Assembly (NCBI RefSeq): GCF_006345805.1
Contig: NC_043006.1
Span: 94,116,001-94,180,000, forward strand
Reading direction: 5' to 3'
DNA: 64,000 nucleotides
From: Octopus sinensis
Lineage: Eukaryota
The notes beneath the pieces are model-generated. The model was not told where the DNA came from and searched no databases. It worked only from the letters and a program-made list of their open reading frames with translations. The position numbers and the translations under genes are program-made. Numbering within the stretch: position 1 is the first letter of the stretch; each line of letters begins with the position of its first letter. Shown here piece after piece: positions 3,205 through 63,775 of this stretch.

Positions 3205-3243
<39 letters not shown>

Positions 3244-3493
3244 CATATATATATATACATATGTATGTATATATATTTATATATGTATGTATTATATATA
3301 TATATTACACATATATATATATACATACATAAATATATATACATACATATATATATATATATGTATATATATTTATATATGTATATATATATATATTATA
3401 TATATAATATATATACATATATATATATGTATATTATATATATATGTATATATAGATATATGTGTATACATATTATAGATAATATATAGATAG

Positions 3494-12202: not shown

Positions 12203-12430
12203 TTTCTTTATTACCCATAAGGGGCTAACATAGAGGGGACAAACAATGACAGACAAAGGGATTAAGTCGATTACATCGAACCCAATGCGTAACTGCTACT
12301 TTATTTATCGACCTCGAAAGGATGAAAAGCAAAGTCGTCCTCGGCGGAATTTGAACTCAGAACGTAACGGCAGACGTAATACGGCTAAGCGTTTCGCCCG
12401 GCGCGCTAACGTTTCTGCCAGCTAGCCGCC
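12203..12430 (-). mobile_element. tRNA-derived SINE, family B
   Basis: Minus head GGCGGCTAGCTGGCAGAAACGTTAGC...GAGTTCAAATTCC and core TTTCATCCTTTCGAGGTCGATAAA. Other copies near 15400-15572, 42410-42567 and 44005-44230. Confidence 0.8.
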
Positions 12431-14814: not shown

Positions 14815-15101
14815 CCGGTTGGCCTTCTACCACTACTACTATGGTCTCTGTCGCTTAGATCTGGTTGATATCGTCATACTTGCACAGATAAAATTGATCC
14901 ATCTGCGGTCATGTTATTTTTCTTTCAGACGTTGACAAAGCTGTTCAAAAGAAGTCTTAACCGCACCGATTTTATAGGTGGCGGAAGGACGGCAGGGCTC
15001 TGTTTACAGCCTCTTCTAACAAATAAAAACAATAGAAAAACAACAACAACAGTGATACAAACATTAACAATAAACTGCCAAAGAAACATCTTTGTACTTG
15101 C

Positions 15102-15225
15102 CTGCAACAATGACATTGAATGTGAAGGATAATGTGCCGAGGTTATTGGACACACGGCACGTGTAGTTGCCCGAGTCTTTCATTCTTACGTTTTGCACTG
15201 TTAACGTGTATTTCTGAAACTTTAC
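15102..15225 (-). CDS. FGFR: FGFR-family Ig domain, C-terminal half (VKFQKYTLTVQNVRMKDSGNYTCRVSNNLGTLSFTFNVIVA)
   Basis: Acceptor TTTTACTATTGCAG|, D-x-G-x-Y-x-C motif, 124 nt, phase 0 to 1, donor CAG|GCAAGT. The K|V phase-0 intron and the phase-1 end match the exon layout of vertebrate FGFR D2. Confidence 0.9.
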
Positions 15226-23311: not shown

Positions 23312-23484
23312 CTTCAAATTTGGTATACGTTTGATATCGTCTCCATCTCTTGCCCAAGTGATGTTTGGTTTTGGTATGCCGTTAGCCGAACAATCCAGTT
23401 TCAAGTTCTTCTTTACCGCCACTGTCACGAGCGACTCTCCTTTCTTTGGTGGGGATCGCTTTTTCCACTGGGGTTTTCTGGGTG
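23312..23484 (-). CDS. FGFR: FGFR-family Ig domain, N-terminal half ((A)PRKPQWKKRSPPKKGESLVTVAVKKNLKLDCSANGIPKPNITWARDGDDIKRIPNLK)
   Basis: Polypyrimidine acceptor TTCTTTCTTAG|, donor AAG|GTAATT, 173 nt, phase 1 to 0. Ig I-set motif L-x-C-x-A-x-G-x-P-x-P-x-I-x-W. Confidence 0.9.
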
Positions 23485-37175: not shown

Positions 37176-38553
37176 TAAGATATATCCACATACATATATA
37201 GATAGGAGGTGTATGCATGTATGTTTATCGAATGTGCTATAAGTAATATTACATAATAAATCAAAATAAACCACAAAAGAAACATGTATATAAAAAAAGA
37301 ACTCGTTGAATTCATAAAACGTGAAACCTTGGCTCTTTCTCTAGCTTTAATCAAGAATGAGTGTATGATTGGTTATCGTTTATTAAAAAGCAACAGTTTT
37401 ATTTTCCCACGTTAAAAAATAAATGGGGAAATGGTAGTTATTTAAACTTCATTGCTCATTTGTTTTGCGGTGGTTGAAACATCGCAATCGCAAAGCCTAA
37501 TTCAAATTCTGGGAAAGAAGGAAAAGCTCGTTTTCGTGCTTCGAAGTCACTAACTGTAATTAAGGAGACCCAGTGGGATTGAAGCAGATCATGTTTTCTA
37601 GGCATGTGATTCTACGATTTACATGCTGAGGAACGAAGACAACAGTTCTTTTATTCGATAATACAGGAAGTCACACTCACTCTCACTGACACACACATAT
37701 AATCGCATGTGTCCACACGCACACACACACACGTGTGTGTGTATTTTCTGTTTGTCGTTATGTTCAACAGACTGAAGCCCTCAGTAAATTTTGAGAGCTA
37801 TATTTTATATCGTATATCTTAAATGCTTACTGACAACAACTTAACTTTTATGTTCCAGGAAAGATATTTGTCTAACGTTACCACAGACTTGCCTCGTCCC
37901 TCTCCAATCATCATACCGCTTTTTACAACACCACCCACGTGTATTTCTATACATACTCATACATATTACATATATGTGTGTGTGTGCTTGTGGATACACA
38001 CATTATATGTGTGTGTGTGCGTGCATATTAATCAATGTGAAATTATCAAGGATTATTTATATGTGGGCTTGGTCCCCCTCAGTCAGTCGACTGTATTTAG
38101 GGCAGGATAGAAAATAATAGGAAAGCACCACACAATGTCAGCAATGTAAAGAGTCAGTTGTTGACTATCTTGCCTCAAGAAGAATTTGTAAACCCATCGG
38201 AAGTCCAAGTTTATTCGTTGATTTTTTTATAAAAATGGAAAGATGGCTGTTGACGTTGAGTTTGTCTTTGAAGCTGTTTTGATAGTAATTTAAATAAGGA
38301 TCAAAGATTTTAACCCCTTCTTTACAGAGAAACCCACCATTGTTCGTCATCTGACTTTAAACACGCTCAAATTCTTCATTGAGATTCGCGAAAAGGACTT
38401 TCACTGATTGATGCATGGCAGCCGACAACCAACGTCTACGCAACTTACAAGTCGTAGATTATATTCTACTTTCCAAACGGAAACTCAGGCCTTTCGGTTG
38501 TAAAATTGCGAATTGGCCATCCATATTATTTATAATTCTCAATTTCATTATTT

Positions 38554-39037
38554 ACATTATTTACATTTATATCTGTCCTCATCTTGTTTGTTGTTAACAC
38601 AACGTTTCGGCTGATATACCCTCCAGCATTCATCAGGGCCATTTCGAACCTGGGTTCTCATTCCTAAGGTATTCTTCGATGATGTCATCATCATCATCAT
38701 CATTATTTTATGTTTGACTTTTGCCTTGCATTTGTACAAGTTGGTCCCAAGTCTCACCCAGAGACCTCAAGAGACAAGTTAGAAGTTCATGTTGTTATTA
38801 AGCCTAGGGTGCCATATATTTGGTTTTGGACTTAGTGTTGTTCTAGAGAATGTTTAAGAAACCATAAGAAAATTATGTGTTTGTTTTAAAATTTGAGATT
38901 ACATAGGGTTATTATTATTATTATTATTATTATTATATTATTATTATTATTATTTTATTATCCAGGTCACTGCTTGGAATTGATCTCAGAATCTTGGGGT
39001 TAGTACCCCGCGCTCTTAACCACTAGGCCATATGTCC
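38554..39037 (-). mobile_element. Second, longer copy of the tRNA-head/(AAT)n/hammerhead element
   Basis: Same head (39037-38961), (AAT)n, an extra internal segment, HHR and AT-rich tail as the 54286-54547 copy. Confidence 0.7.
38596..38638 (-). ncRNA. Damaged hammerhead motif, same family as 54336
   Basis: CUGAUGA-A-UGCUG...CAGCC-GAAACGUU-GUGUU. The 5' strand of stem I is disrupted by a short deletion. Confidence 0.55.
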
Positions 39038-39217
39038 AGCGTGTGATTTCAACAACGGAAATCTTCTAAACTAACAAGGCGAGTTATGTCTAGCCCTAGG
39101 CGCGGTGAAAGCCACTGATGAACATTAAAGGGAATGCGAAATCATTGATGATCTAGCAACGCGTGGATGTGGTACATGTAAAGTATTAGAAGACGCTCAG
39201 GGAAGGAAAGAAAGATG

Positions 39218-39253
39218 GTCTAACGTTTCGAGCAGACGCTCTTCTTCGGAAAC
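39218..39253 (-). ncRNA. Hammerhead-like motif with C4 core variant
   Basis: GUUU-CCGAAGA-A-GAGC(GUCU)GCUC-GAAA-CG-UU-AGAC. Confidence 0.45.
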
Positions 39254-39389
39254 AGAGGTAAGTCCAATAGAAAGAAGACAGAGGAAGAAAATCGCCAACG
39301 ATTCACATGTGGTTACATTTTGAAATATAATATATATAAATATATGTGTGTCACACACATACACAAATATATATATATATATATACATA

Positions 39390-39478
<89 letters not shown>

Positions 39479-41451
39479 TTATACATATATATTTTGTCAT
39501 CAGCATTCAATAGTTACTGGAATTCGAAGAAGCTTTAGTTGTAGATATAATATTGCACAATGTAGATGCATACACACACGCATTTGTGCTTGTGTATGTA
39601 CTTAATGTATGTACTCATACATGTATCCATACACACATACATACATCTACATAGATACACAACCGTGTGTTCGCGTGCGTGTGTCATGTCTATCATCTTC
39701 CCTTGTAGTAGCAGTCAATTCTTTGATCTGAAGAACTCTTTTACTTCAGATTCTGCTAAGTTACGGTGACGGTGGACGACGGAAGGGAAGCAGCTGCGAA
39801 GGTGATTTCAAAATACTTGCGGCAGTGTTTTAAAAAAATGGTAGTTTTTTAAAAAATTTCTGTTGGTAGTTGATTGTTCGTTCGTTGAGTGTTCTGTATG
39901 CGTATGAACGTATGTGTGTGTGTGTGTGTGTGTGTGTGCACGCGCGCGCGCACGTGTGTGAGTGTTCGAAAGTATATAATGTCCTTTGTATCATCTTCTG
40001 ATGAGTCGCTATAAATGTATATATATGCATATATATGTGCATGTATATATATATACAAACACACACATACACAACCATAGGCAGTCATACATACATACGC
40101 ATATATATAGAGATACCGTCACACACACACACAGATGCACGAACGCACGCTCATATTTATACATATACCCTTCATATATACACATAAAACGACACGAAGA
40201 AGAAGAAGAAGAAGAAGAAGAAGAAGAAGAAGAAGAAGAAGAAGAAGAAGAAGAAGAAGAAGAAGAAGAAGAAGAAGAGAAGAAGAAAAAAGAATCACAA
40301 CAACAATAGCTGAAGTAAGAGCAACAACAGCAGGAACATGAAAGACTAATATGAAAAGAAATAAGAATATTTATTTATTATTTTTTTTTTTTCAAAATAC
40401 ACCAATTTAAAACTGGAAGTTCGCCATTTTTTTTATATAATCAGTTTTATTTTCGAATGCAATGATGTGATGAGAATATATGTGTAGTCTTAGAGGAAAA
40501 TTATTTATGAGTTTAAAATATCTAAGAAAACCTGTGGTACCGTTCGCAGTGAACATGCATGAGACGGAATTAGATTAAAACAATCAAGGCGTATCACATG
40601 TTTTTGCACGTTTTCATTGAGTATGAGGAAAAAGAAGAAGGAGAAGAAACATGCGATTGTATTTATGGAGCGTTATGTATGAACCAGTGTACCGAAAGCA
40701 TACATAAGACATTTTATACTTTATATACTAAGCAAAGAGTCTTTATGTTATTGACATGCCTACCCGTTTTGTTCTTGTATTTAGGTGTACCCAGGTCAGT
40801 TGGCATCCCTTTGAACCTGTATAAATTTCTCTTTCTTAACAGAATTTGCACCTGAAAACATTCACGTACGTGTTAGAGTACCTGTTCTCTATTGAACTGA
40901 ATATAGGAAATATTTTCAGCAGACCTTGGGTGGGATAAAACCCATATCGAAGCTGACCAACAGGATTTGAACTTGTCATCAGTCATCGAAATTAATTACT
41001 GCCCTCGTTACCTTGTGTAGTAATAATGGTTTCAAATTATGGTTGATGGCTAATAATTTTAGGGATTGTGGGGTAGTTGCATGAATGTTTATTTTATGGT
41101 TTAAGTTTGCATATTTTCGACATAATTACAGAAGTTAAACGAAGAATCATATTTTATACATTTGGGAGGAATAGTAAAGTTTGTTATTTAGTTATCATTA
41201 GTTGTGTTCTTGCGACAGGTCACTTCTACAAATATTTCTCCATCGCAGCAGAGCAAGTGATCTTGCAAGTATTTTATTATTTTAATTTTGTTTTTATATT
41301 TATTGGGATGAGATCCATGCTGGAAGCACTAGCGTCTAACGTCTGACCTCTGACGTTTGACCTCCGATCTCTGACTTCTGAAATCAGAACGCCATGTTGG
41401 ATCGTTAGCCCCTACACGCAATTTTTTCTCTCCTTGTTTCTTTTCTGTGAA

Positions 41452-41489
41452 TCTTTCTGTCGAAGAGCGTAGGCTCGAAACGTAAAAGA
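41452..41489 (+). ncRNA. Hammerhead-like motif with U6 core variant (PLE terminal repeat family)
   Basis: UCUUU-CUGUCGA-A-GAGC(GUAG)GCUC-GAAA-CG-UA|-AAAGA. Confidence 0.55.
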
Positions 41490-41584
41490 CTTTTTCTATT
41501 TCTGTTCCTGAGCGCCATACTAATACATTATTTGTTTGTACTCCACCTGCCTTCGTCTTTTGTTTATTTTCGTAAACCTTCCGT

Positions 41585-41616
<32 letters not shown>

Positions 41617-44004
41617 TACATACATACATACATACATACATACATACATGCATACATACATACATGCATGCATGCATGCATACATACATACATATATACA
41701 TACATACATACATACATACACACATGTATAGTGAGATAAATGTTAGAAAATGGGATGGACGACATTCGTAAGTCGAAATCACTACAATTGTTTCGGCGCA
41801 TTTTTACACCCGTAGTGCATTGGTGAGATGTATTAACATTGTCATGCATCCAAGGTATAAAATGCGTCACCTCAAGTGCTTGTATAAAGAAGTTCTTCGT
41901 TAGATCCTATCATCATTTCACTGTGGGCTTTGGATATGCATTCTCACAGTCTATGAGTGTCTTTGTGCTTCTCCCACACTGCTTGAAAACCAGTGTTGGT
42001 TTGTTTGCATTTCTATAATTTAAGCGGTTCGATGTTGGTTTCTTTACATCTTTAACTTAAGCGGTTCGACAAAATAATGAAGAAACGAGGGCTAGACTTT
42101 AAAAAAAACAATAATCGACAGGGGGCGGTTTTTCCGACTGAAACCCTTCAAGGTGCCCCAGTATGGCCGCAGTCCAATGGCTGAAACAAGTAAAAGATAC
42201 GATTTATAACAAATAATGATTAAACTAGACTCGCTTTACGAATCAATGACGAGAACTCACAAAGATTCGAACCAGTGTAAGGAGTTCAACAAACGAGCTA
42301 ACACAGGAGAGTGAACGCTGTTGGAAATACATAACAGATACAACGGTAGTTGGACAGACAGATCGATCGATCGGTAGATAGATAGATAGTCAGAGTTCAT
42401 TATTCGATTGTGTCGACCTCAGCTCTCAACTGGTTATGCATTTTATCAACCCCGAAAGAATGAAAGGTAAAGTGGACCTCGGCGGAATTTGAACTCAGAA
42501 CGTGGAGACGGACGGAATGTTTAGCATTTCAAACGGCATGCTTAACGATTCTACCTGCGTGCCGCCTGAGATAATGATAAAATATTGCATCTATAAAGGT
42601 AGCGAGGAAGAAACGGACATAGATGAACAGTGAATGGGCAGAGTAGAAGCGAGAGAGGGAGATATAAAGTGGAAAGGAGGAGGACGTCTGAAACCAGGAG
42701 GTTGTCAAAGAGGCAGCTGATTATTCGATCTGCGTGGGCTGAGTTATTAAGAGAGATGGGAAGTGCTTAAATAGCCAGCAGACCATTGGGTCGATGGAAG
42801 CCAGCTGAGAGTAGGTTTTATGCAATCAAAACTACAGCTGAAATATTATATTCGAAAAGATGTCGCTGGGAAAAGGAAAACATTCGCATTGATAATTTTT
42901 CTCCTATTTGCTCTGATAAACGTTTTGAAAAATCTAAGCGTTTTAAATCATTTATGCAGGCAAAAAGATAGAAACTCTGAATGGCGGTTAAGAAGATAGA
43001 GGTGGGAAAATAACGCTGCATAGCATTTAGAAATACAAAGTATACAAAACTTGTTGGAATGGTTGCAAGGTTTGGCAAAGCATATTAATCTCCATTTGAT
43101 ATCATAGTTCGAGTTATTAAATTTAAGATTCCAGATAAATGTAGATAAACTCGTGTTTCTGCTTCTAAGCTGATGGCAAAAAGTTTAAAAGATGTTGATT
43201 GTAACGTAATTTGAATAAAATCGAAGTTTAATCAAATGTATGATTTAGAAGCTGTGTACATTTCTGCAGTAACGCAGTAAATAATCTCTTTAGAAGTATA
43301 TTCATGGTCGAATGCACAATTATTCGGGTGGAAGCGTTTGTAAGTCTTAGAACGTTGGGTCGAGGAAGAAGATCTACGTTTTATGCCGTTCGTGTTAGAT
43401 AAAGATGGAGCAAAGTTATTTGTAAAAGAATAAGAAACTTTTATATAATTCTGTGAAAAATTTTGTAGTTCATACGCACAAAAGCCTATTTATTTTGCAA
43501 TATTCTTCCTTCTGATAGTTCTGAGACAAGAATTAATGCAAGCATTCAAGTTATATCTGACTAGATAAAGCATTTGTAGATTCTGTTAACTTACCCGGTG
43601 TGTGTGTGTGTGCGTGTGTGTGTGTATACATATATATGAAATATGCATATAGATACATGGACACACACACACACATACATAAATATGTATATATTTGTGA
43701 AATCTCTCATAGGTTTTTGATAATCACTCCATGTACACGTGAATTTGTTTATAATATCGATACATTTTGTATGACTGAAAAATGAAAAGAAAAAAAAACT
43801 AATATTTAACGATGGTTGTGAACTTTTTCAAGTAAGTGGGACAATCCGCGCAATGGCAACATTTGAAAAACTTTCTAAAAAATCTCTTCTTCAATTCATT
43901 GATTTTTGCCTTGCTTTCTAATTGTTGAATACATGAAATATACAGAATGCTATGCATATTTAAAAATTTACAACATTTGTACTGAAGCAGTTTGGTATTA
44001 TTTA

Positions 44005-44230
44005 ATTCTTTATTGCCCACAAGGAGCCAGATATAGAGGGGACAAACAATGACAGGTAAAGGGACTAAGTTGATTACATCGATCCCAGTGCGTAACTGGT
44101 ACTTATTTAATCGACCCCAAAAGGATGAAAGGCAAAGTCTACCTCAGCGGAATTTAAACTCAGAACGTAACGGCAGACGAAATACGGCTACGCATTTCGC
44201 CTGGCGTGCTAACCTTTCTGCCAGCTCGCC
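44005..44230 (-). mobile_element. tRNA-derived SINE, family B
   Basis: Close match to 12203-12430. Confidence 0.8.
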
Positions 44231-44318
44231 TTACACACACACACACACATACACACACACGTGTGATATATATTTATGTATGTATGTATGTATAAGTATA
44301 CACACACACATATATATA

Positions 44319-44380
<62 letters not shown>

Positions 44381-44450
44381 CGGGAAGCTTTATGAAAATA
44401 AACAAAAGACGAAGTATTAGTATGGCGCTCAGGAATAGAAATAAAACAAG

Positions 44451-44488
44451 TCTTTTACGTTTCGAGCCTACGCTCTTCAACAGAAAGA
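44451..44488 (-). ncRNA. Hammerhead-like motif with U6 core variant
   Basis: Reverse complement UCUUU-CUGUUGA-A-GAGC(GUAG)GCUC-GAAA-CG-UA-AAAGA. Confidence 0.55.
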
Positions 44489-44535
44489 TACACAGAAAAG
44501 AAACACGGAAAGAAACAAGGAAAGAAACAAGGAGA

Positions 44536-44601
<66 letters not shown>

Positions 44602-47248
44602 CGATGTGCCTGTGTATGTGCGTAATTATAGAAACATACACCCACATACATACGCATATGCGAAACAGATATACATAGTTACACATTTTTTTCTTTTCTC
44701 TCGCAAGTTTGTTGTTGGGGCGTATTCTCATTAGTGAAGAAACCGGTTAAAAATTGTAATTAGGTGATACTAATTATACGACAACATAGGCGAAATAAGG
44801 TGTGCATGAATGTGCGAGTGTGTATGTGACATTTTGATATTTTTAATCTATTTTTCAATCCATAAACTTATTTTCACCTTCGTAAAAAATAATTACGAAG
44901 TTGATTTATTAGTAATTTTCAATAACTGGGATCGTGTTTTATAGAAAAAGACTTCGATAAAAATGTTGCGCAGAGCGTGTGACTGAACTCTATAATGAGG
45001 TGTTTAGTAGATGTGTGAATAGTCATCTGTTGGGGGGTAGCGGTGAGAGATAGAAATGAGAGAAAGTAGAAGAATAGGAGAAGGAGGAGATTAAACAGAA
45101 AGGTGTGGGTGTGAGAGAGAGAAATAGTGAGAAAATTTGATTTTATGAGGGAGCGGTGGTTTTGTAGACTTGATGTAGGTGTGATGGTAAAAATGGAAGA
45201 TTGAGCAAGAGAGACAGAGAGACAGAGAGAGAGAGATTATAGATAATGAAAGAGAGAGAGAGGGAAAGTGAAATAAGTAGAGAGAGTGATAGATGTTTGG
45301 GGAGAAAAAGAGAAAGCATGAGAGTGCGACAGAGAGGAGGAGAGAGAGGGGAAGAAAGAGAGGAAGTGAGAGAGGCGGGGAAAAGAAAAAGTAGAAAAGT
45401 AAGAGTAAATGGAAAGGGAAAAGAGAGAGAAGGAGATTGTGTGTATGGTAGCGGAGGTGGTGGGGTGTTATCTTCTTTCTGAAGATGGCAGAATCGGTAG
45501 AGCGACGATGAGTTACATACCTGGTAGTATATAACGCTGTTCGTTTACGATCTGTGTTCAATTCCTGTTGTCTGGGTCAATAGAGTAGGAAACAGGTAGT
45601 GGGTGGAAAAGGGGTGTGTGACTTAACCGTTTTCGCCGTCTACGAAAATGGTGTCTGGGTCAGTTGAGGAAAAGGCGGTGGGGTGGGGTGGGGTGGAACA
45701 AGATGAGAAATGGTAAATGGACGTTGGTCAGTGGATTCGATTATGATTGGGTCGTCGCTTCCATCATGTGAAATATCCCGTTCATACCGCAGACACGTGA
45801 GGTCGATAGAGATGGGATAAAACTGGATATTAGATCCATGAATTACAGGTGCAATTCAAGTGGAAGGCTTCTGCATAGTTTCCGTTTATCTAATTTCATT
45901 GAAAAGGTTATTAGTCAACTCAGGGTTATCGTAAAGACATTTGCTCAAGGTAACACGGTAGGGCGATCGAACCCGGAACATGGTTTGAAACCCATTTCTT
46001 AATTTTTCCGCCATACTCTACTGGGATAATCTCTTGTTCACTAGAGTTAATCTAATGAGTTCCTAAGCCAATGTTTGATCTTTCTTGTAGTCAATATATG
46101 GACAAAGTCTAAGGCTGAATCGTTAGCACGCCTGGCAAAATGCTTAACAGCATTCCGTCTGTCTTCACATTTCTGAGTTCTAAAATTCGTCTGTCTTCAC
46201 TAACTATTCTCCCAACCCACCACCCGTTGCATATTGTATATATAATAAGAATTAGCACACTATTCAGGACAGTGGCCTGGCAAACTTATTAGAGCGTCGG
46301 GTAAAATACCCGGCCCTTTAAGTTCTGAGTTCAGATCACACTAGAGTCGGTTTAACCTTTCATCCCTCCGACGTGAATGAAACAGAGTATCGCAGAGGGA
46401 TCAGTGTGCCAATAGAGCCAACGATTTTAAAACGCGATCTATTGAACAATTTTGCTGTGGATGACAATGTAAAGAGGGCGAGGTGTTCGTATTAACTAAA
46501 AGTTTTCAGTGAAAATCATTTTATTTAATTTTAGCCTGAAAACTAAGGTGTCTCTGAGGAACTCTGCTGTCAGGCAATCGGCCGGGATGACACACAAACC
46601 AAATACTTGTGTACCAACTACGACGTCAGCCACTCTCTACACTAGCATTTACGAAACAAACATATGTAAAGGAGCTGGAGACTTTCTTTAATTGACAGCT
46701 TCCGTCATATCATTTGAACCTTTTAACCTCTGAATACTTTCATATATTTATACCAAAGTTATTAACACCATCTTGTTCGTTATTAAACCTGACTCCATTG
46801 AAGAAATGGCGATAAATATATTTACACAGCAACCACTATGAATTTTGTATATCATCTGATGATGTTGTTTTGGGTTACAGATATTGCTTAGTTATACTGT
46901 TTATGTAGTCGAGGCAGTTCCTGTTCTTGAAATATAAAAACAAACTACAAAACACAGCCGTCACTCGCAAGCGAATGCGTGACTGGTGGTTTCTTTGTAC
47001 CGTTTGAGTGCAGCAGATATAGACGTATCGTTCATGACTTCTCAGAGGAAGATTACGGATGTGAAGGAGGAGGGGCTCCGCTAGCACTCGATTGTTATCC
47101 GTTTTCGGCTGAGTAGACTGGAGCAACAACGAAGTGCTCAGATCAAGGACACAACGAGCTGCTCAATCCACGAATCGAACCCATGTCATTATGACCGTGA
47201 ATTCAACACCCTAACCACTAAACCAAATACTACACACACACACACACT

Positions 47249-47677
47249 AGGTATTAATGACAGAAGCAACTTTTATAACGAATATTATTTAGCATATCCA
47301 TTTTAAATTGGATGTGTTGTTCATAACACCGTAGACTGTGCTAAACGCCCCGACAAATTTTGTGTAGACGACAAATGCTAAAAGTATCGAAATTCGGTTG
47401 GCACAATTTAGCCAGTGCTGGCACATGGCACTACTGCACTATCTGATTTCACTGGATTGCAGAACGGCAACAGCAGAAAATCAAGCACCAAATGCCAAAC
47501 TGATGTAGAATGATTCTAGCCAATCAGCCAGTAATGTTGCAGAAAGCAGGCCGGCTGTGTTTAAAAGATTATTCGGGACGTTTACCGCAGTCTACAGCGT
47601 TATAAACAACACATCTAGGTGAGTTTGGATGTACTAATTAATATTCGTTACAAAGGCTGTTTCTGTTGCTAATAGCT
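47249..47677. mobile_element. Old MITE-like element with diverged TIRs of about 105 bp
   Basis: 47249-47354 is an imperfect reverse complement of 47573-47677. Confidence 0.6.
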
Positions 47678-48340
47678 AATTTATACACAGCCCGCAAGTT
47701 GTGCTAATTAATACATACACACATACACCCCCCCACACACACACATACCCCCCCACACACACACACACACATACCCCCCCACAAACACACACATCTATAG
47801 TATTTGGCTTATAAACAGGAAATTGCCTTACAGGCAATCCAGCCATGATCACCCCATATTCAAGTACAGTTTATGCAGAGCTACATTTTACAATATGTCA
47901 TGCTTTAAAATATCAAGGTATAATTTGAGTTAAATTTGGCGGTTACTTCTAGCGGGCACCAATATTGGATCCAAAGTAAGTCCGCTTGGTGGAGTGAATG
48001 CTTTACGCTATATTACGATCGAGGGGAAGAACTGGACTTACTACCCTGGGCTAGCAAGCACTCTGTTCACTGTGGATTAAATACTGTTATTCTTAAAGTG
48101 TCCTGCCCATTTACAGCCAGGCGGACTGAGTTTCAAACCCCAAACAGTGTCAGAAAATACGAACTACCCATCCCTCAGATAATGCCTCACAATTTCGTTG
48201 TCTCAGCAATTTCTTTAATCGTTTCCTCCCTCTATCACTCTCTTCCTCCAACGCTCATATATGTGTGTGTGTGTGTGTGTGTCTGTGTCTGTGTGTTTGT
48301 TTGTGTGTGCGTGCGCGCGTGAGTGTGTGTGTCTGTGCGT

Positions 48341-48407
<67 letters not shown>

Positions 48408-49722
48408 GCACACACACATATATACATATATATATGCAGATATAATATTTGTATTTATATATATACATACATATATGAATATATACATATATATACACAC
48501 ATACATATATATACATGTATATGTATATATATGTATGTGTGCGTATGTACACATATATACACGCACATGAATATACATTTACATATATCTATTGTATAAG
48601 GCATAAATACACACTCACATACACAGCATATATACATATATACATACATACGCATATATTTATTTTGCATAGAATTGGTTCCATATGTTACTTTAAGAAG
48701 TATTAGAATTATATACTAACATATTAACACACCCCATATATACATACTCACAAGAACACATAAACGCACATCCACGTATATACACACATATACGGAAACA
48801 TACATCTACATTCCATTACATACGCACTTGTATAAACATACGCATACATAAACAGTACACATTCATACATACACTTGAATATGTATATATAAGTATACAC
48901 ACTCCTAGAGTCTATCTCACGTCTCCATTACTTGCTTATAACAGCTTGGAGTGCCATAAATAGAGTTAATTGCTCGACTTTTTGAACGTGATCTGTCGTG
49001 TTTGACTTTCGTGTGATGCGGAGTCAGGGTTTCTTCCCAACCGCAGGGAGAGGAGAAGAGCTTATTAAATGAAGAGATGGCTGGAAACTGAAACTGGTTT
49101 GCATTATCAGTTGAGTCATCGGAATCACACCGTCCGTCCCACGGTGGCCAGCGTGTCCGTTCACTCAGTGGCCTAGATAGATGTGAGCGGGGTTGAGTGG
49201 GGGTTTGGATAGAAGACCCGAGAGGGGGAGTCGACCCGAGCGGGAGTTTCGTGGGGTGAGGGGACGCTCCAATCTAGGCGGAGCTTCTTTGGGGCCGGCA
49301 CTAATGGTTCGGCTGTATAAGCCTCTACAGAGGCGGAGGGTTAGATGCAGTAAACCTAAGGGTTGCCCCCGGATGGCACACATTTCAAGCTAGGTCAATG
49401 CATTTACTGTTTTTTGTGTTTAAATGTCTTTTTAGTCGCCCACGCTATCTGTGAATGTGGAGGAGTGAGAAGGGAGATAAACCCGATAATAATAATGTTT
49501 CTGGGTAGTAATAAAAAAAGTAACATGCAGACAAATATGAAACCAAGACGGACGAAATGCCGCTGAGCACTTTGTCCGGCCATTCTCCCAGTTCACCACT
49601 TTAGTTGCAATACTAATATTAGAAGCAAAGAAAACAATTAAGAATTTCCCAAACGTCATCTGAGACAAATAACAAGAACACAAGAGGACAAGGGCATTTC
49701 GATGATCTACTATCATAATAAT

Positions 49723-49801
<79 letters not shown>

Positions 49802-49831
49802 ATAATAATAATGATAATGATAATAATAATA

Positions 49832-49897
<66 letters not shown>

Positions 49898-49906
49898 TAA
49901 TAATAA

Positions 49907-50403
49907 CAACGATCGACTCTCTTGTTTTGTCTTGATATAAAAGATGGGCTACAGCAAATATTCTGCTCAATACCACAGATTTGCTTGTCAGTTGTTTGAC
50001 CGTAACCAGTTGAGCATGTCCCTTAGTGGCTGATGATATGTGCATCTCTGATCACGAGCAGAAGTAGTGGGGGAGTATCATAGCCATGTGTTGAGAGGGA
50101 TTCTTTGGGGCTTGAATAATTCACCTCAGGAAACATGGGTGTTTCGTTCAACATCCTTAAACAACCCTTACTCAGGGACCTTTTGAGCAGGATAGGTTAC
50201 TCGACCAGAAGAAAATTCTAACTGGGCCCCATCTATAAGGTCATGTGCTGTTTATCTTGATATGAGATCATCATGTCGCGCACATATGGTTGTGATGCAT
50301 GTGCCTGGTTTACCCTTATCAGACGGGTAGTCATGATGAGTATACTGGGCTTCGTATATTTTACCCCAGTGTCACTTTGATGGCATGCACTGCTCTCTCA
50401 CTC

Positions 50404-50491
<88 letters not shown>

Positions 50492-50996
50492 TAATAATAA
50501 CAACGATCGACTCTCTTGTTTTGTCTTGATATAAAAGATGGGCTACAGCAAATATTCTGCTCAATACCACAGATTTGCTTGTCAGTTGTTTGACCGTAAC
50601 CAGTTGAGCATGTCCTTAGTGGCTGATGATATGTGCATCTCTGATCACGAGCAGAAGTAGTGGGGGAGTATCATAGCCATGTGTTGAGAGGGATTCTTTG
50701 GGGCTTGAATAATTCACCTCAGGAAACATGGGTGTTTCGTTCAACATCCTTAAACAACCCTTACTCAGGGACCTTTTGAGCAGGATAGGTTACTCGACCA
50801 GAAGAAAATTCTAACTGGGCCCCATCTATAAGGTCATGTGCTGTTTATCTTGATATGAGATCATCATGTCGCGCACATATGGTTGTGATGCATGTGCCTG
50901 GTTTACCCTTATCAGACGGGTAGTCATGATGAGTATACTGGGCTTCGTATATTTTACCCCAGTGTCACTTTGATGGCATGCACTGCTCTCTCACTC
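49907..50996. repeat. Direct tandem duplication of a ~497-bp unit separated by (AAT)n
   Basis: 49907-50403 vs 50501-50996; the only difference seen is a 1-bp indel. Confidence 0.9.
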
Positions 50997-51017
50997 AATA
51001 ATAATAATAATAATAAT

Positions 51018-51058
<41 letters not shown>

Positions 51059-51064
51059 GTAATA

Positions 51065-51672
51065 TTACCAGCCAATGTACGCCACTAGCCCAGAAGGAAT
51101 ATAAGAGACGCCACGACAATATAACCAGGCTTGTCCGTTGTTCACTTTGCAACAAGTATGGACTTGACAGAGCAAAAAATTGGTAAGACCACAAACCTGA
51201 AGGCATCGTCGAAAATAGAAATGTAAAGATCGTATGGGATTTTATGATTCAGTACGACCATGAGATGGAGAATAGGAAGCCGGGTATAGTCTTAATTGAG
51301 AAAGAAAACAAACTATACTGGATCATAGATATAGCATGCTCAGCTGACAACAATGTATACTATAAGGAAGAAAGAAAAGTCGAGAGATATGACAGGTTAG
51401 CCTGGGAAGTTAAGCAGCTGTGTTCGATGAAAAAGGTAGCAGTAGTAGCAATAATAGTCGGAGCCCTGGGAACAGTGAGCAAAAACCTCGAGAAGTACGT
51501 GGAACAAATAGGGGCTGCAATAAGGTGGAGTACTTGCAGAAAATAGCACTGCTTGGAACCGCTCGAGTACTCCGAAAGGTGATCGAAAAATAAGAGGTGT
51601 TACCTTAGTTCAAAGGTAGTGAACAGCTGACACCGTAGTACATCGCCAGCGTTAGAAGCTGTGCAAAGGCAA
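51065..51672 (+). mobile_element. R4/Dong-clade LINE 3' fragment (restriction-like endonuclease domain)
   Basis: YKRRHDN...KIVWDFMIQYDHEMENRKPGIVLIEK...IIDIAC...KVERYDRL...IIVGALG, with a stop and a frameshift. Flanked by (AAT)n, the known Dong target. Confidence 0.85.
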
Positions 51673-51756
<84 letters not shown>

Positions 51757-51929
51757 CTGCAGCAACAGCAGCGGCAGCAGTAGCAACAATAATAACAAAG
51801 TCATCGACCTCAACAACAACATCAATCGCAAAAAAGAGCAACAACAGCAGCTGCAACAAGAATTTCTAATTTATTAAATCATAATTGTTCTAAATAATGA
51901 AAATTCTACCATTGCTGCTGCTGCTGCTG

Positions 51930-51950
51930 CTGATGTTGATGATGATGATA

Positions 51951-52040
<90 letters not shown>

Positions 52041-52044
52041 GTGG

Positions 52045-52084
<40 letters not shown>

Positions 52085-52103
52085 AATGATGATGTTGATG
52101 ATA

Positions 52104-52134
<31 letters not shown>

Positions 52135-52185
52135 CGATGATGATGATGATGATGATGATGGTGATAATGATAAATGATGATGATG
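51930..52185. repeat. (GAT)n microsatellite; other trinucleotide arrays (ACC)n 27-115, (GAA)n 40196-40287 and 59845-59977, (AAC/AAT)n 49715-49900, (ATT)n 53261-53380
   Basis: Direct inspection. Confidence 0.95.
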
Positions 52186-53260
52186 AGGAGGAGGTTGGTA
52201 GTGGAAATAATGGTGCAAATGATTTGTAATTTCTACATCATGGAAAAAGATTTTCAATCGTTAATGAGGTTAGTTTGGTGTAGAAATCTGTAGAATATTG
52301 TAAGAAGGTGCAAAAGAGCAAAGAATGCATTTGTGAAATGTTTGAAATAATTGAGCTGACAAAAGCAAACAGCATCAACATCAATATCAACATCAACAAC
52401 AACAGCAAAAATATTTTAGAATTGTCACTTCATCTTTATTAGTTGATTTCTCAGTCTTTCAGCATCCGTGTGTTAATGCGTGCATGCGCATGTGTGTACT
52501 TGTGTGCAGGGATGAGAGAGACGAAGAAAGAAAGAGAGAAAGAGAGAGAGAGGGGGGGAGTTGCTTGTGTGTTATTTGTGCACACCTGCATGCGTGTTAT
52601 AGGTGTGTTTTTCAATGTACATTTAAAGGACGTGCTCCAGGGTTGATATCAAAAGAAATTACAAACAGAGTTGGTATTACACTTACTATTATTAAGATTC
52701 TTAAACAACATGTTTAGCGTAACATGATTTACATAACGCGTAACATTTAAACATGTTAATAAAAGAAAAAGTCAACGACGAATGTGGAAATTAAACAAAC
52801 AGATGGAGCTAACAGTTTTACAATGGCAAACATGAAAGAGAATAGGGTTGCAAGCATTAATTTCAATGAGAGAAAAAAAAAATAGCTATAACTGTAAGAA
52901 ACAGTGCGTATAGCAATGACACCACCACTGCAACCACCACCACCACCACCACCACCACCACCACTACTATCACAACCAACACTATAATCACGACTACCAC
53001 TATCATCACTATAACTACCATTACCACCATTAGAACTACTTTCAACTATGACAACGACACTAAATATCTCATCTTCTGCTAGTGTTGTGGGTCAAAAGAA
53101 GCCTTTAAAACGAGTTTACTGAAGGAAGAGAGCTGAAATGCGTCGGGAATGTATCCTTCGTCAGAGGTTACCATATTCGCTCGAAAGAAAATTTATTGAA
53201 GATGTAATCTACTAGTCTCCTCCCAACAAAAGTATAGGCCTTGTGCCTTTAATAGAAAGG

Positions 53261-53316
<56 letters not shown>

Positions 53317-53327
53317 CACTATTATTA

Positions 53328-53376
<49 letters not shown>

Positions 53377-53514
53377 CATCATTACAGTAGATGGGGGAAT
53401 TCTATCTATATACAGTTCTTTATCTTTCAAATCTTCTCTATCTATATTACTCCCTGATGGGAATTCTCTTTTAGCTGGCATTTAAGGAGAGTAAAGTTAG
53501 CTTTAATGACAGTA

Positions 53515-53548
<34 letters not shown>

Positions 53549-53614
53549 CTCAATAACTGAAGGAAAAGTAAAAAGTAAAAATGTGAATAAAAAACATGTT
53601 CGGTTATTTTTAAA

Positions 53615-53656
<42 letters not shown>

Positions 53657-53758
53657 ACTCACTCCTTTTCTTTTTAAAGTTTTACAGGATCAGTTTTCAG
53701 CATCTGCGGAACCTCATCGGGGACTGTTTCGTGTGAACCTTGTTACGTGCGAAATTCA

Positions 53759-53800
<42 letters not shown>

Positions 53801-54335
53801 GGGGGCTACATTTTTTTATGGATATAAAGGATGTTCCTCTCCTCTAACGAATTCACACGAGGAACATTCTACTGATGATTAATAGCTCTAGATATAAATT
53901 TGTCTTATACACGATCGCAGCGCCGCCATAACTAGATAATTAGATCTACTTCCACTATATAATTATGACAATGTGTGCGTGCGTGTGTGTGTACCCGCAC
54001 CCACACACTCATAGACACATATGCTCATAGAAAGAGGCTCTTCCAATCTAATTTCTGAACTAGACGCATATATTTCTGAGTATATCTCTAAATGTATATC
54101 TTCAGTTATAGGAACAAGAGTGCTGGATACGTACGGGTAGAGTTAGGATAATGTATTCTCACATACATTTAAGAATATGCACGTAATGATAACAGTAGCT
54201 TTAAATTTTGGCACAAGGCCAACAATATCAGGGATGTGAGAGGACTAATCGATCTCATCGACCCCAGTGTTTAACTGGTACTCATGTTACATTATTTGCA
54301 TTTGATGGATATTTGTCCTCATCTTGTTTGTTGTT

Positions 54336-54381
54336 AACACAACGTTTCGGCTAATATACCCTCCAGCCTTCATCAGGTGTC
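54336..54381 (-). ncRNA. Minimal type I hammerhead ribozyme (inverted copy)
   Basis: Reverse complement GACAC-CUGAUGA-A-GGCUG...UAGCC-GAAA-CG-UU-GUGUU. The stem II change keeps a G-U pair. Confidence 0.75.
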
Positions 54382-54411
54382 TTGGGGAAATTTCAAACCT
54401 GGGTGTTATTA

Positions 54412-54476
<65 letters not shown>

Positions 54477-54555
54477 TCACTGCCTGGAATCGAACTCGGA
54501 ATCTTGGGGTTCTTAAACCGCGTTCCTAACCACTACGCCATATGCCCCTTATGAA

Positions 54556-54601
54556 GACACCTGATGAAGGCTGGAGGGTATATCAGCCGAAACGTTGTGT
54601 T
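54556..54601 (+). ncRNA. Minimal type I hammerhead ribozyme
   Basis: GACAC-CUGAUGA-A-GGCUG(10 nt)CAGCC-GAAA-CG-UU|-GUGUU. Confidence 0.75.
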
Positions 54602-55715
54602 AACAACAAACAAGATGAGAACAAATATCCGTCAAATGAAAATAATGTACATAATTCCTCATCTCTTAAATAAACGAGTATATGGTACTCATTTTATCGA
54701 CTCCGAGTGAATGAAAGGCAAAATCGACCTCGGTGGAATTTGACATTCAGAAAGAAAAGGCGGACGAAATACAATCGAGCCTTTTGTTCGGCTAATAACG
54801 TGTCTGGTGAGCTCAACATCTTGTGTTCACGAAAAAATCCTTTCTACTGGAAGCAGAAGGCCTCAAATTTGGGGGAAGGATTTATTAAGTCCATTAGATC
54901 GACCCCAGTGTATAACTGGTACTTATTTAATCGACCCTGAAAGGACGAAAGGAAATGTCGACCTCGGCAGAATAATGCTTTGTGGACGTAGAGAAGGGAA
55001 GATTTGAATGCATGGAGAGCTTCTAGTCTTGCGTAGAAAAACACTTATTCCGCCACCCTTCCAGGTCTGTGTTGGAGAGCAACTGTCCGGGAGTAAAGAC
55101 GATCTATGTTCATGAAACATGAGATGGGTACCGGGCGGTTTCAATAGATTCTCCATTTTTTTAGAGACATCGTTACCTGCATCCATTGACCGTGGTGGTG
55201 ATGGTGATGATGATGATGATGGTGGTGGTGATAGTGATGATGATGATGATGGTGGTGGTGGTCGCCGTCGTCGTCGCCGTAGCTGTGGTGGTGATCGGGA
55301 TGGTGGTGATAGTGGTGGTGGTGGTGGTGGTGATGATAATGATGATGATGAAGATGACGAAGATGATGACGACGACGACGATTACGAGGACGGCAGTGAT
55401 AATGATGATGGTGATGATAATGCAACCGATGAATACGACTAACTGCCATCACCACCGCCACAACCATGATGACAGAAAGTGGTGATTAGAAATGATGAAG
55501 AGGATGAAGAGGAAGGTGATGATGATGATGATGATGATGAGTAGGATGAGGAGGAGAAGGAGAATGAAGATGAGGAGGAGTGTAAGGAGGAGAATTCATT
55601 CTTTGATAATATTTTTCATTTCCTTCCTGTTTCTTCTCTTCTTCGTTCTTTTCCTTTTGCTCAACCGTTGCACGTGCTGGAATCATTTTCTCCCTGTCAC
55701 GTTTTGGAACTTGTA

Positions 55716-56016: not shown

Positions 56017-56320
56017 TCACGTGATCACGTGACCGACCAGACCATCAGATGTTGCTACACATCGCTGGTCACAATGCGTTCGCATTGTTTTAGCCTTCAA
56101 ATGACGCCACCCCACTGGCTAAGCGAGCAGACCAACAGAAGAAAGAGTGAGAGAAAGAGTGGTGAAAGAGTACAACAGGGATCACCACCTCCTGCCGGAG
56201 CCTCGTGGAGCTTTTAGGTGTTTTCGCCCAATAAACACACACAACGCTCGGTCTGGGGATCGAAACCACGATCCTACGACCGCGAGTCCGCTGCCCTAAC
56301 CACTGGGCCATTGCGCCTCC
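56017..56320 (-). mobile_element. tRNA-Arg-like SINE (octopus OR-type)
   Basis: Head GGAGGCGCAATGGCCCAGTGGTTAGGGCAGCGGACTCGCGGTC with A/B boxes and a TCG anticodon-like triplet. Confidence 0.8.
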
Positions 56321-56351
56321 ACATGTGTGTGTGTGTATATATATATATAGT

Positions 56352-56727
56352 GGAGGCGCATGGCCCAGTGGTTAGGGCAGCGGACTCGCGGTCATAGGAT
56401 CGCGGTTTCGATTCCCAGACCGGGCGTTGTGAGTGTTTATTGAGCGAAAACACCTAAGCTCCACGAGGCTCCGGCAGGGGATGGTGGTGATCCCTGCTGT
56501 ACTCTTTCACCACAACTTTCTCTCACTCTTACTTCCTGTTTCTGTTGTACCTGTATTTCAAAGGGCCGGCTTGTCACTCTCTGTGTCACGCTGAATATCC
56601 CCGAGAACTACGTTAAGGGTACACGTGTCTGTGGAGTGCTCAGCCACTTACACGTTAATTTCACGAGTAGGCTGTTCCGTTGATCGGATCAACCGGAACC
56701 CTCGTTGTCGTAACCGACGGAGTGCTT
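56352..56727 (+). mobile_element. tRNA-Arg-like SINE (octopus OR-type), different tail
   Basis: Same head as the adjacent minus copy. The tail also occurs near 11880-12160 and 16480-16582. Confidence 0.8.
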
Positions 56728-56808: not shown

Positions 56809-58089
<1,281 letters not shown>

Positions 58090-61338: not shown

Positions 61339-62430
61339 ATCATCGGGCAAACGGGACATCGCTTGGCTGACCGGTTCGCGGAACACCTCCGAGATATCCG
61401 TCTCGGCAATGACACCGGTCTCGCGCCATTTCCGCTCTATCGGTCACTCTTTGCAGCAGCTGTCTGTGTTCGGATTGTCTTTGCACAGGGGTCATCCGGA
61501 CTCCCGTTTTCGCTGTGAACAGGGATTAATCTTCTCTCTTCGCTCCTTTGCACCACATGGGCTCAACTCCCCTCTCCCCTTCATTTAACCCTCCCCTCTC
61601 CTCTCTCCCTCTCACATCTACTTCCAAACACCCACCTCTCCTCTCTTGCTCCGACTCCTACTGCTTCTCTTCACCCCTACTCTCCTTCTCTCTTCTCTTC
61701 ACTCCTACCCATCTTCTCCCTTACCCCTCTCCCTTCCTCGTGACCCCAAATCTACACAATCCAACCCCACCTTCCCTATCCATCCTTTACACCCACTCCC
61801 ACATACCCAACCTCTACCACCACCCTCAGCCTAACCCACGTACCCCACCTCTACACCACCTCTACCCAACCCTCAGCATAACCCACATACCCCACCTCTA
61901 CTCCCACCCTCAACCTAACCCACACCCCATCTTTGCTTCCCCACTCTTGCCTCCCCCATATCCCAACACCACCACACACCACGACACCACATACCACCAC
62001 ACCATACTACACAACACCACATGACATCACACCACCCCGCACACACTAGCACTGGCCACTTCCCAGCGCCACACCATCGTCTACACACCTACTCATGCAT
62101 ACAAGCACACGTCAAGGTCACCAACCCTCTTCCACACGCACATACATGCTCTCTTATATGTACACACACACGCGCATCTTCGTTTTGGGATCACCACTAC
62201 TTTATTATCTCCGCTTCTTCCTAGCTCTCCTCTGTGACCCCTCTGCTCTGCATTTACCATGATAGATCGCTAGCCACCACACATTCTTTATTTTCTCTCC
62301 TTGTTTCTTTCTGTGGAAGAGCGTAGGCTCGGAACGTTAAAGACTTTTTCCCTTCCCGAGCGTTAAACTAACACATCTGTTTGTTGTTTACACACACTTC
62401 TTCATCTTTTTTTTTTGTGAATTCTCCCCC
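61339..62430 (+). mobile_element. 5'-truncated Penelope-like element: GIY-YIG C-terminus, C-rich 3' region and terminal repeat with HHR-like motif
   Basis: IGQTGHRLADRFAEHLRDI / PVSRHF...GHS...EQGLIFSLRSFAPHGLN* with one frameshift. Ends in the repeat family also at 23100, 36820, 41390 and 44380. Confidence 0.8.
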
Positions 62431-62588: not shown

Positions 62589-62950
62589 TAAATTATTTTG
62601 CATGTCTTCAGATCAAACGATATCATGTTTACATCCATTCATCAACTCAGTACTTTCATACAAATGCAGAAAGACATCTTGAAAATAATTATGCAATGAA
62701 ACCAATAATTAATAAATTATTTATCAATTATTGGCATAATTAAATCTCAAAATGAGATTGAAGCAGTAATCGCTCGATAATGTAAAGTATAGAAGCCATC
62801 TTATCATGGCTAACCACATTGGGGAGGGGGTGTTACTGTAGCTTTATAGCCCCAAGAGATCTTCGTCTCAAGCTGGCTTTAGACACAATATCAGTGTGCT
62901 TGGAGTATTTGCAAAGGGAGGCCATCCCTTCCTCGCAAGCCTGAGTGATA

Positions 62951-62993
62951 CGCTCGAACTAGTTTCGGGATTGTTCTCCCTCGTCAACGGGCG
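62951..62993 (-). ncRNA. Mirror copy of the U3-variant hammerhead motif
   Basis: Left arm of the 294-bp palindrome. Differs from the right-arm copy only in the stem II loop. Confidence 0.65.
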
Positions 62994-63155
62994 GTAACCA
63001 CCAGGTAGCGATGAAAGTGAAGGCTTCTTTGCAAATTATATATAAGTTTTTCTAATGGCGTCTGCCACTTTTCGACATGAGTGGCAGACGCCATTAGAAA
63101 AACTTATATATAATTTGCAAAGAAGCCTTCACTTTCATCGCTACCTGGTGGTTAC

Positions 63156-63198
63156 CGCCCGTTGACGAGGGACAACAATCCCGAAACTAGTTCGAGCG
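63156..63198 (+). ncRNA. Type I hammerhead-like motif with U3 core variant
   Basis: CGCCCG-UUGACGA-GGGA(CAACAA)UCCC-GAAAC-UA-GUU|-CGAGCG. Confidence 0.65.
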
Positions 63199-63775
63199 TA
63201 TCACTCAGGCTTGCGAGGAAAGGATGGCCTCCCTTTGCAAATACTCCAAGCACACTGATATTGTGTCTAAAGCCAGCTTGAGACGAAGATCTCTTGGGGC
63301 TATAAAGCTACAGTAACACCTCCTCCCCAATGTGGTTAGCCATGATAAGATGGCTTCTATACTTTACATTATCAATTATTGTTTTCCACAATATCCAGGT
63401 GTGTTTACAATGATCAAATGTATGTGCTGAACATTTGCTCCCTCACTTCATCAAATCAACGTTACCTGAACAGGTGAACGGTGTGCCACACTTCAGGTGT
63501 GAAAGTGATCGCAGGGCAGCAACGTGGGATGAAGTGTTTTGCTCAAGAACACAAAGTCCCATCCGGTCCAGGAATTGAAACTGCGATCTCGCGCTCGTGA
63601 GTGCAACACCCTAACCACTAGGCTACGCACCTCACCTCTCTCTTACACACACATACACCCACCCATCCACACACATACAGACACACTCACATATATATAT
63701 ACATATACACAGACACATATCCACATACACGCACATATATATATACACACACACATATACATATATAAATATATA

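Follow-up and report, generated by a model that had tools for sequence, protein, structure and literature searches.

We describe here a composite mobile element in a 64-kb window of the Octopus sinensis genome (contig NC_043006.1, positions 94,116,001 to 94,180,000; the window is the whole stretch analysed, which is AT-rich, microsatellite-rich DNA). Its two copies, A and B, both on the minus strand, join a tRNA-like head through an (AAT)n array and a linker to a hammerhead ribozyme (HHR) and a tail, and were inserted as units. The HHR is of the minimal type found in Penelope-like elements (PLEs), copy B carries an insertion scar of the PLE type, and the sequence is highly abundant. We consider it likely that this is a non-autonomous element of the RNA polymerase III (Pol III) type, with an HHR-tail of PLE origin, that is copied uncut by a PLE protein in trans; the polymerase, the partner PLE and the chemistry of mobilization are what we infer from these features.

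Composition and insertion of the element

A first-pass annotation of the window, made from the letters alone, had given both copies the order head, (AAT)n, spacer, HHR and tail, and this order is borne out, with heads that are 83 % identical (Table 1). Copy A spans about 39045-38548; the previously proposed limits, 39037-38554, give the start of the head correctly but fall short of the full span, which is bordered by a 6-bp candidate duplication. Forward copy B, which runs on the minus strand through a short linker to a tail ending at 54286, is 262 nt long and non-coding, inside the 80-500 nt range of short interspersed elements (SINEs). The spacer was thought to be common to both copies and is not, since that of copy A holds about 220 bp of another repeat and the linker of copy B is shortened. 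The nested repeat has a summed depth of 0.3-1.2 million in run X1 against about 45 on unique DNA, and is probably the 3′ end of a long interspersed element (LINE), presumably Dong/R4. Comparison with copy A indicates that copy B has lost part of its linker, and the intact linker end appears as a loose-end consensus in 239-368 contigs per run. These and the other family-level data come from contigs of four public genome runs mapped on copy A (at most four samples, from three studies and under four organism labels).

Target-site duplications enclose the head-to-tail unit in both copies, and no (AAT)n is left past the tail. Copy B lies inside an older SINE-like repeat, and a query made by joining its flanks is colinear with the uninterrupted copies of that repeat at 44062-44185 and 12259-12382 but longer by exactly 10 nt, so that locus B is one insertion with a true target duplication, as the 10-bp repeat noted earlier had suggested (the gap was read from a BLAST alignment; MAFFT left it unopened). 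For copy A, 4 of the 15 listed joints between contig segments (65 in total) skip the whole copy from flank to flank, which indicates that head to tail was inserted as a unit; two of these empty-site joints, 38545-39052 and 38547-39053, each found in three of the four runs, match its predicted ends. The flanks of copy A are an older, low-depth repeat, and the skipping contigs are unoccupied paralogues of that repeat. The interrupted repeat (38488-38547 joined to 39052-39165, plus strand) has a short open frame and, about 50 nt past its end, a degenerate HHR-like motif (39115), and may itself be a PLE end; a further minimal-HHR family is seen at 39249 (-).

Head and tail would be expected to occur mostly apart if their pairing were a coincidence, with head and (AAT)n forming a very small SINE of their own and the HHR belonging to a PLE end inserted independently into (AAT)n arrays. 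Other elements do nest in such arrays, including inside copy A, and a PLE protein favoured an ATT motif in vitro (PMC11167929). Against this, the two forward HHR pieces each follow one of the arrays with a head, of which there are 2 among 10 (AAT)n arrays (p about 0.02, ignoring order and strand), duplications and empty sites enclose the whole unit, and five listed joints link head and HHR colinearly elsewhere at about single-locus depth (breakpoints 38618-38998, 38637-38992, 38634-38991, 38623-38978 and 38625-38985, of which two may be one locus). A chance pairing has the slightest claim of the explanations considered here, and the annotation's view that head and HHR-tail move as one unit is upheld by the duplications around both copies and the empty sites for copy A.

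Summed depth over the element is very high in all four runs. Its peaks reach 0.33-2.6 million for the head and 1.5-8.5 million for the HHR-tail, against 35-47 for unique DNA in three runs; summed contig depth is not a copy number and is not used as such, and with a 31-fold overcount allowed for, three runs give about 1,600-2,100 heads and 5,000-6,200 tails as rough lower bounds.

The head had been described as tRNA-like with Pol III boxes, and in its geometry this holds: 12 of 12 (copy B) and 11 of 12 (copy A) invariant tRNA positions are kept, by an established list scored ungapped from the first G of the head, and the A and B boxes are 33 nt apart. Four further SINE heads in the window have this gap too, and it falls in the range of 30-35 nt reported for tRNA-derived SINEs (PMC8969392). 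Those four heads (the ones compared) have only 56-69 % identity with heads A and B. Both boxes are intact in copy B, where the B-box string quoted in the annotation sits at 54497-54486; the stems of the element's head are partly broken, and copy B has no run of four Ts, so that Pol III would read through. The copy A head has a short variable loop and ACT at positions 34-36, which we take to suggest a class I tRNA, perhaps that for threonine. The linker of each copy also includes a further, partial B-box-like motif, which is not preceded by an A box (38656-38647 and 54399-54390, minus strand). ARAGORN gave 30 and 163 calls at its 80 % and 70 % thresholds, mostly noise, and these were not used.

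Loose contig ends at 39034 (95-157 contigs per run) share about nine letters, with an overall agreement of 0.47 over 30, a pattern of constant start and varied flanks that points to a 5′ end of the element fixed at the head. This bears on the proposal that the head is passive cargo in the pseudo-long terminal repeat (pseudo-LTR) or 3′ untranslated region of an ordinary PLE, the copies being 5′-truncated PLE ends transcribed by RNA polymerase II. Such an origin would suit the excess of HHR-tail over head depth, the frequency of truncated PLE ends in the window and generally (PMC4209133), and the occurrence in five proteins of related HHR frames in tandem (two to three copies) with no head frame. 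It seems to us unlikely, since both copies start at or a few bases before tRNA position 1, the loose ends past the head diverge instead of running into a single continuing sequence, and copy B has kept its A and B boxes.

The hammerhead, the insertion scar and a proposed route of mobilization

Type I HHRs had been assigned to both copies. That of copy B stands, as one of minimal type, whereas that of copy A is broken, having lost helix I and G10.1, and helix III is absent. The two HHRs of locus B, one in the forward copy and one in an inverted piece, have an intact core, a helix I of 5 bp, a helix II of 6 bp with G10.1-C11.1, an extra A after A9 and a palindromic ACGU in place of helix III. 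All the traits described for minimal HHRs of PLE pseudo-LTRs (PMC4209133) are thus found at this locus, with helix II at 6 bp where the schistosome examples have 7-8 bp (PMC4209133). Descriptors of the minimal HHR, in strict and one-mismatch versions, were run over the whole window; the strict one finds two matches, both at locus B, and none in any of six Markov-shuffled 64-kb control sequences. Position 10.1, altered in copy A, is G in 94-96 % of contig depth. Among the variant positions listed, N7, which is the free position of the core, differs in 12-19 % of depth and is the only core variant outside CpG, and positions 11.1, 15.2 and 16.2, all CpG, vary in 13-31 %; the motif may therefore have been conserved in source elements and have decayed neutrally after insertion.

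The inverted HHR-bearing piece that had been seen 5′ of copy B is confirmed. It occupies 54554-54682 (plus strand), is 96 % identical to the forward HHR-tail of copy B over 95 nt, and reaches a long end 86 nt past the predicted cut through a 34-bp one-sided tail, known from this one locus. PLE insertions are described as having, beside the 5′ end, an inverted and 5′-truncated copy and, at just one of the two ends, a tail of 30-40 bp (PMC8557442), a scar that has been called unique to PLEs (PMC11167929). In vitro, purified PLE protein makes nicks in the two strands of AT-rich DNA and extends them, reverse transcription starts at two internal sites of the RNA that are separated by the length of the tail, and HHR cleavage is not needed and occurs only with the protein present (PMC11167929). 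Locus B fits each of these points, with ends 52-55 and 86 nt past the cut, and copy A ends at 53 nt. In line with such a route, Octopus vulgaris has 31 recently active PLE families (PMC13282606). An opposite-strand joint in three of the four runs (38600/39022) is not locus B and marks a second inversion junction; another (38637/39034), also in three of four, may be locus B itself.

In LINE twin priming, the inverted segment comes from upstream and the 3′ end stays single. At locus B the inversion does duplicate the 3′ end, which twin priming does not explain. We therefore see little likelihood in a LINE-mobilized SINE with a captured PLE fragment, in which the HHR would be a passenger and the inversion a rare accident: target duplications and a short repeated AT-rich end in both copies would agree with it, as would the lack of an inversion in copy A and the large share of SINEs and LINEs in the Octopus vulgaris genome (about 12 % each, PMC13282606), but the inverted piece repeats the 3′ end and 34 bp beyond, which twin priming of a monomer does not yield, a further inversion junction is present in three of four runs, and there is no poly(A) end. 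The HHR-tail has no match to LINE fragments within the window. The PLE-type HHR and scar make it likeliest that the machinery used is that of a PLE and not of a LINE, as had been proposed.

The element probably originated by fusion of a tRNA-derived head with (AAT)n to the pseudo-LTR region of a PLE, the end that bears the HHR. Pol III would initiate at the head and, for want of a T4 terminator, read through; a PLE reverse transcriptase-endonuclease protein would bind the HHR-tail region in trans and nick AT-rich DNA, and reverse transcription would begin at an internal position of the RNA, either of two sites separated by about 34 nt, making both a terminator and a poly(A) tail dispensable. 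The template would be uncut RNA, because a single minimal HHR cleaves poorly and inserted copies keep the HHR whole. Priming from both nicked strands would yield a forward, short-ended copy and an inverted, truncated, long-ended one, and the HHR-tail would fill the role that a LINE-derived 3′ tail has in an ordinary SINE.

The annotation had also allowed for a retrozyme with circular RNA. On that account transcripts of tandem source arrays self-cleave as dimers and circularize, and the circles serve as templates for reverse transcription, a route proposed for Sm-alpha and for animal retrozymes. Sm-alpha indeed has the order promoter then HHR and cleaves out of multimers (PMC6765202), and core variation at N7 only hints that catalysis mattered in source copies. 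Both copies here, however, are dispersed monomers that start with the tRNA head instead of the cleavage site and have an uncut HHR inside them, so that the retrozyme branch is unsupported; no head-to-tail joint occurs among the 15 of 65 joints listed, tandem arrays elsewhere being possible, and minimal HHRs tested in vitro are inactive as monomers and cleave only weakly as dimers (PMC4209133). We regard this route as very improbable. In RNA read through locus B, the predicted fold places both HHRs in one long duplex (-186.6 kcal/mol over 397 nt), which would make cleavage impossible.

Several points weigh against a Pol III-type monomer served by a PLE. No PLE of O. vulgaris with the same HHR-tail end was found in the excerpts of PMC13282606, and protein searches for a PLE partner (three word-based, one HMMER), weak for a non-coding end, gave only seven non-PLE matches. 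ARAGORN called no tRNA, and hence not the head, at its default and 90 % thresholds; Rfam gave zero and one weak match on the two heads, with no tRNA model, and nine matches at locus B, none of them hammerhead or tRNA; free folds of the HHR and head monomers are no stabler than those of shuffles (z -0.06 to -0.74). No inversion is seen in copy A, which is flanked by a duplication of only 6 bp, AT-rich and weak alone. HHR-tail depth is 1.9-4.5 times head depth, so that a head may be missing from many of the tails; truncated copies, inverted duplicates, relatives without a head and bias of the alignment may each contribute and are not separable. One-mismatch matches to the minimal HHR number seven in the 64 kb, headless relics of other families being common. 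The view of the family covers 15 of the 65 joints and all but 40 of the variant entries; the contig mapping omitted microsatellite runs, and therefore no contig crosses an intact head-(AAT)n-linker at other loci. RNA runs, and those presumed to be RNA, contained at most 11 % of the words searched for and were not counted as evidence.

Other searches gave the following. Among the 150 of 272 Rfam matches listed for the whole window there is no hammerhead or tRNA model, and most are microRNA models on microsatellites; the top match at locus B is a microRNA model on the inverted repeat, far below its gathering score. Searches for proteins read through from head to linker or fused to a PLE matched 1 of 2, 1 of 2 and 0 of 11 candidates, and the five HMMER matches cover the HHR part only. 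Exact-pattern scans of viral, prokaryotic and metagenome contigs found 0 loci each. A 22-nt match to the tail at 62374-62394 (E-value, 0.02) was discarded as likely due to chance.

Relation to known elements

The schistosome repeats Sm-alpha and Sj-alpha, of which the former had been cited as a precedent, are an apt one, since there too a tRNA-derived, Pol III-type promoter is followed by a type I hammerhead (PMC6765202, PMC2770079, PMC8490949), in a non-coding repeat of very high copy number. Sm-alpha differs in having a canonical, active HHR with a capped helix III, where the octopus element has the minimal PLE type with ACGU only, and in being derived from tRNA-Gln(TTG), often tandem and cut out of multimers; compared by description only, the octopus element consists of dispersed monomers with an (AAT)n spacer and, in one case, the inversion-plus-tail scar of PLEs. 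With the minimal-HHR ends (pseudo-LTRs) of endonuclease-bearing PLEs it shares the architecture of the HHR, which stays uncut in inserted copies, the inverted 5′-truncated duplicate by the 5′ end and the one-sided tail of 30-40 bp (PMC4209133, PMC8557442, PMC11167929). Unlike PLEs, neither copy has an open reading frame for reverse transcriptase with GIY-YIG or a tandem pseudo-LTR, and where PLEs have their body there is a tRNA-like head whose 5′ end appears to be fixed.

Animal non-LTR retrozymes are likewise short and non-coding, with a type I HHR, and have been proposed to be mobilized by or derived from PLEs (PMC7229834; bioRxiv 10.64898/2026.07.22.740005). They are defined by tandem units and circular RNAs, and a tRNA head is not described in the excerpts of those papers, whereas the octopus copies are monomers with such a head. 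PLE mobilization of short HHR elements has in fact been proposed for tandem retrozymes (PMC7229834, PMC7761336, bioRxiv 10.64898/2026.07.22.740005), on the basis of co-occurrence and pseudo-LTR similarity (PMC7229834; bioRxiv 10.64898/2026.07.22.740005), and non-autonomous PLEs are present in Chlamydomonas (PMC8557442). The tRNA-derived SINEs, including OK, OR1, OR2 and Ceph-SINEs of octopus, resemble our element in their type 2 Pol III head, short length, target duplications and high copy number; SINEs of this kind are defined as LINE-mobilized (PMC8969392), in contrast to the PLE-like 3′ end seen here. Our element may equal a catalogued octopus family. Helenus, Ajax and Cassandra also combine a small-RNA-derived part with a non-autonomous element that does not use LINE machinery (PMC10886601), but they are LTR elements, and the octopus element has PLE features and no LTR.

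Cephalopod hammerheads appear in the excerpts of PMC6962438 only as a count, 235 in giant squid, and the element is not described in those of PMC8967140, PMC4758252 and PMC10886601. Its HHR motif sequence is absent from the supplement of Craig et al. and from a full-text literature search. In the literature covered, which was mostly open-access and separate from the repeat databases Repbase, Dfam and SINEBase, there is neither a tRNA-headed, minimal-HHR, PLE-scarred element nor a PLE-mobilized SINE, and the annotation likewise named none from cephalopods; the family may be catalogued under another label. What appears to be new is thus the tRNA-headed minimal-HHR element with a PLE scar, the joining of a tRNA head to an HHR being known already from Sm-alpha.

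A wider proposal, which we find about as easy to doubt as to accept, is that this is an undescribed SINE-type element, present in thousands of copies or more in octopus, that parasitizes PLEs through its own tRNA-derived Pol III promoter and fixed 5′ end, and that the HHR-tail is the minimal RNA signal for the PLE protein in trans. If this is true, it would be direct genomic evidence of a SINE-PLE partnership, where SINEs are currently defined as LINE parasites, and capture of small-RNA heads would extend from LINE-dependent SINEs and LTR-dependent terminal-repeat retrotransposons in miniature to a third class of retroelement. The element, with about 140 nt from linker to tail end, would narrow the cis-signal that the PLE protein needs, which is testable in the in vitro PLE assay (PMC11167929). 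It would also bear on why PLEs retain hammerheads, since here a Pol III-type monomer retains the motif although cleavage should be dispensable for it, and some of the unclassified SINEs of octopus (893 of 900 recent SINE families, PMC13282606) may be PLE-dependent.

Feature coordinates and other sequences of the window

Table 1. Parts of the two copies and their insertion sites, in window coordinates
Feature	Position	Strand	Remarks
Copy A, short leader and tRNA-like head	38962-39045 (head from 39037)	-	11/12 tRNA invariants
Copy A, (AAT)n array	38911-38961	-	
Copy A, separate high-copy nested repeat ending in (GAT)n	38690-38910	-	No counterpart in copy B
Copy A, linker and degenerate minimal HHR	38596-38689	-	Core at 38636; 5′ strand of helix I deleted; G10.1 altered
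Copy A, tail, short form	38548-38595	-	Ends 53 nt past predicted cut
Copy A, candidate 6-bp target-site duplication, 5′ side	39046-39051		Agrees with empty-site joints
Copy A, candidate 6-bp target-site duplication, 3′ side	38542-38547		
Copy B, tRNA-like head	54472-54547	-	A box 54540-54530, B box 54495-54487; 12/12 tRNA invariants
Copy B, (AAT)n array	54410-54472 (approx.)	-	
Copy B, linker, shorter than that of copy A	54382-54409	-	Includes second, partial B-box-like motif
Copy B, forward minimal type I HHR	54336-54381	-	Predicted cut after 54341
Copy B, forward tail, short form	54286-54335	-	Stops 52-55 nt past predicted cut
Locus B, filler of about 5 bases at inversion junction, directly 5′ of head	54549-54553		
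Locus B, inverted 5′-truncated HHR and tail duplicate	54554-54648	+	HHR 54556-54601, predicted cut after 54596
Locus B, 34-bp extension of inverted copy only (PLE 'tail')	54649-54682	+	Compare 30-40-bp tails in PMC8557442, PMC11167929
Locus B, 10-bp target-site duplication, first arm	54276-54285		
Locus B, 10-bp target-site duplication, second arm	54683-54692		
Older SINE-like host repeat split by copy B	54180-54790 (outer limits approximate)	-	Uninterrupted copies at 44062-44185, 12259-12382, 15408-15538

Hammerhead sequences of other kinds are also present. A second minimal-HHR family, whose core has U in place of A6 and which lacks a tRNA head, is found at 36889 (+), 41457 (+), 44483 (-) and 9267 (-), with a decayed copy near 62260-62400; the copies examined mostly adjoin (TA)n runs and are probably truncated PLE ends. 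An inverted repeat at 62776-63373, with 294-nt arms that are 99 % complementary and 10 nt apart, has an HHR-like motif in each arm (62987 - and 63162 +), and could be either a recent PLE-type inversion or an assembly fold-back.

Five predicted proteins (P0002-P0006) match the antisense frame of the HHR alone by HMMER, in two to three tandem stretches about 40 codons apart with no head frame, and mostly show the residue change expected from N7=A; they probably reflect a headless, tandem sister family. The only named protein matches are gene models of Octopus sinensis and O. bimaculoides (P0001, P0007), in which the HHR-tail supplies the first 25-36 residues. Octopus gene models P0001, P0007, P0008 and P0010 begin inside the HHR-tail in two different frames, suggestive of exonization or mis-annotation, and the O. 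vulgaris relative P0009 starts differently from them.

Other repeats, including LINE-like fragments, sit in (AAT)n arrays of the window. At 49900-51000 and 51060-51670 (+) there are two near-identical repeats of about 500 bp with a truncated LINE-like fragment, each between (AAT)n arrays; the LINE-like fragment of this region has no Pfam match. Broken LINE reverse-transcriptase fragments (RVT_1) occur at 1347-3276 (-) and 56809-57914 (+), and another tRNA-headed SINE is present at 56230-56430 as two copies that stand back to back on opposite strands (A boxes at 56310 - and 56361 +). The reading frames at 15064-15402 (-) and 23255-23590 (-) resemble immunoglobulin-domain exons, presumably of a host gene.

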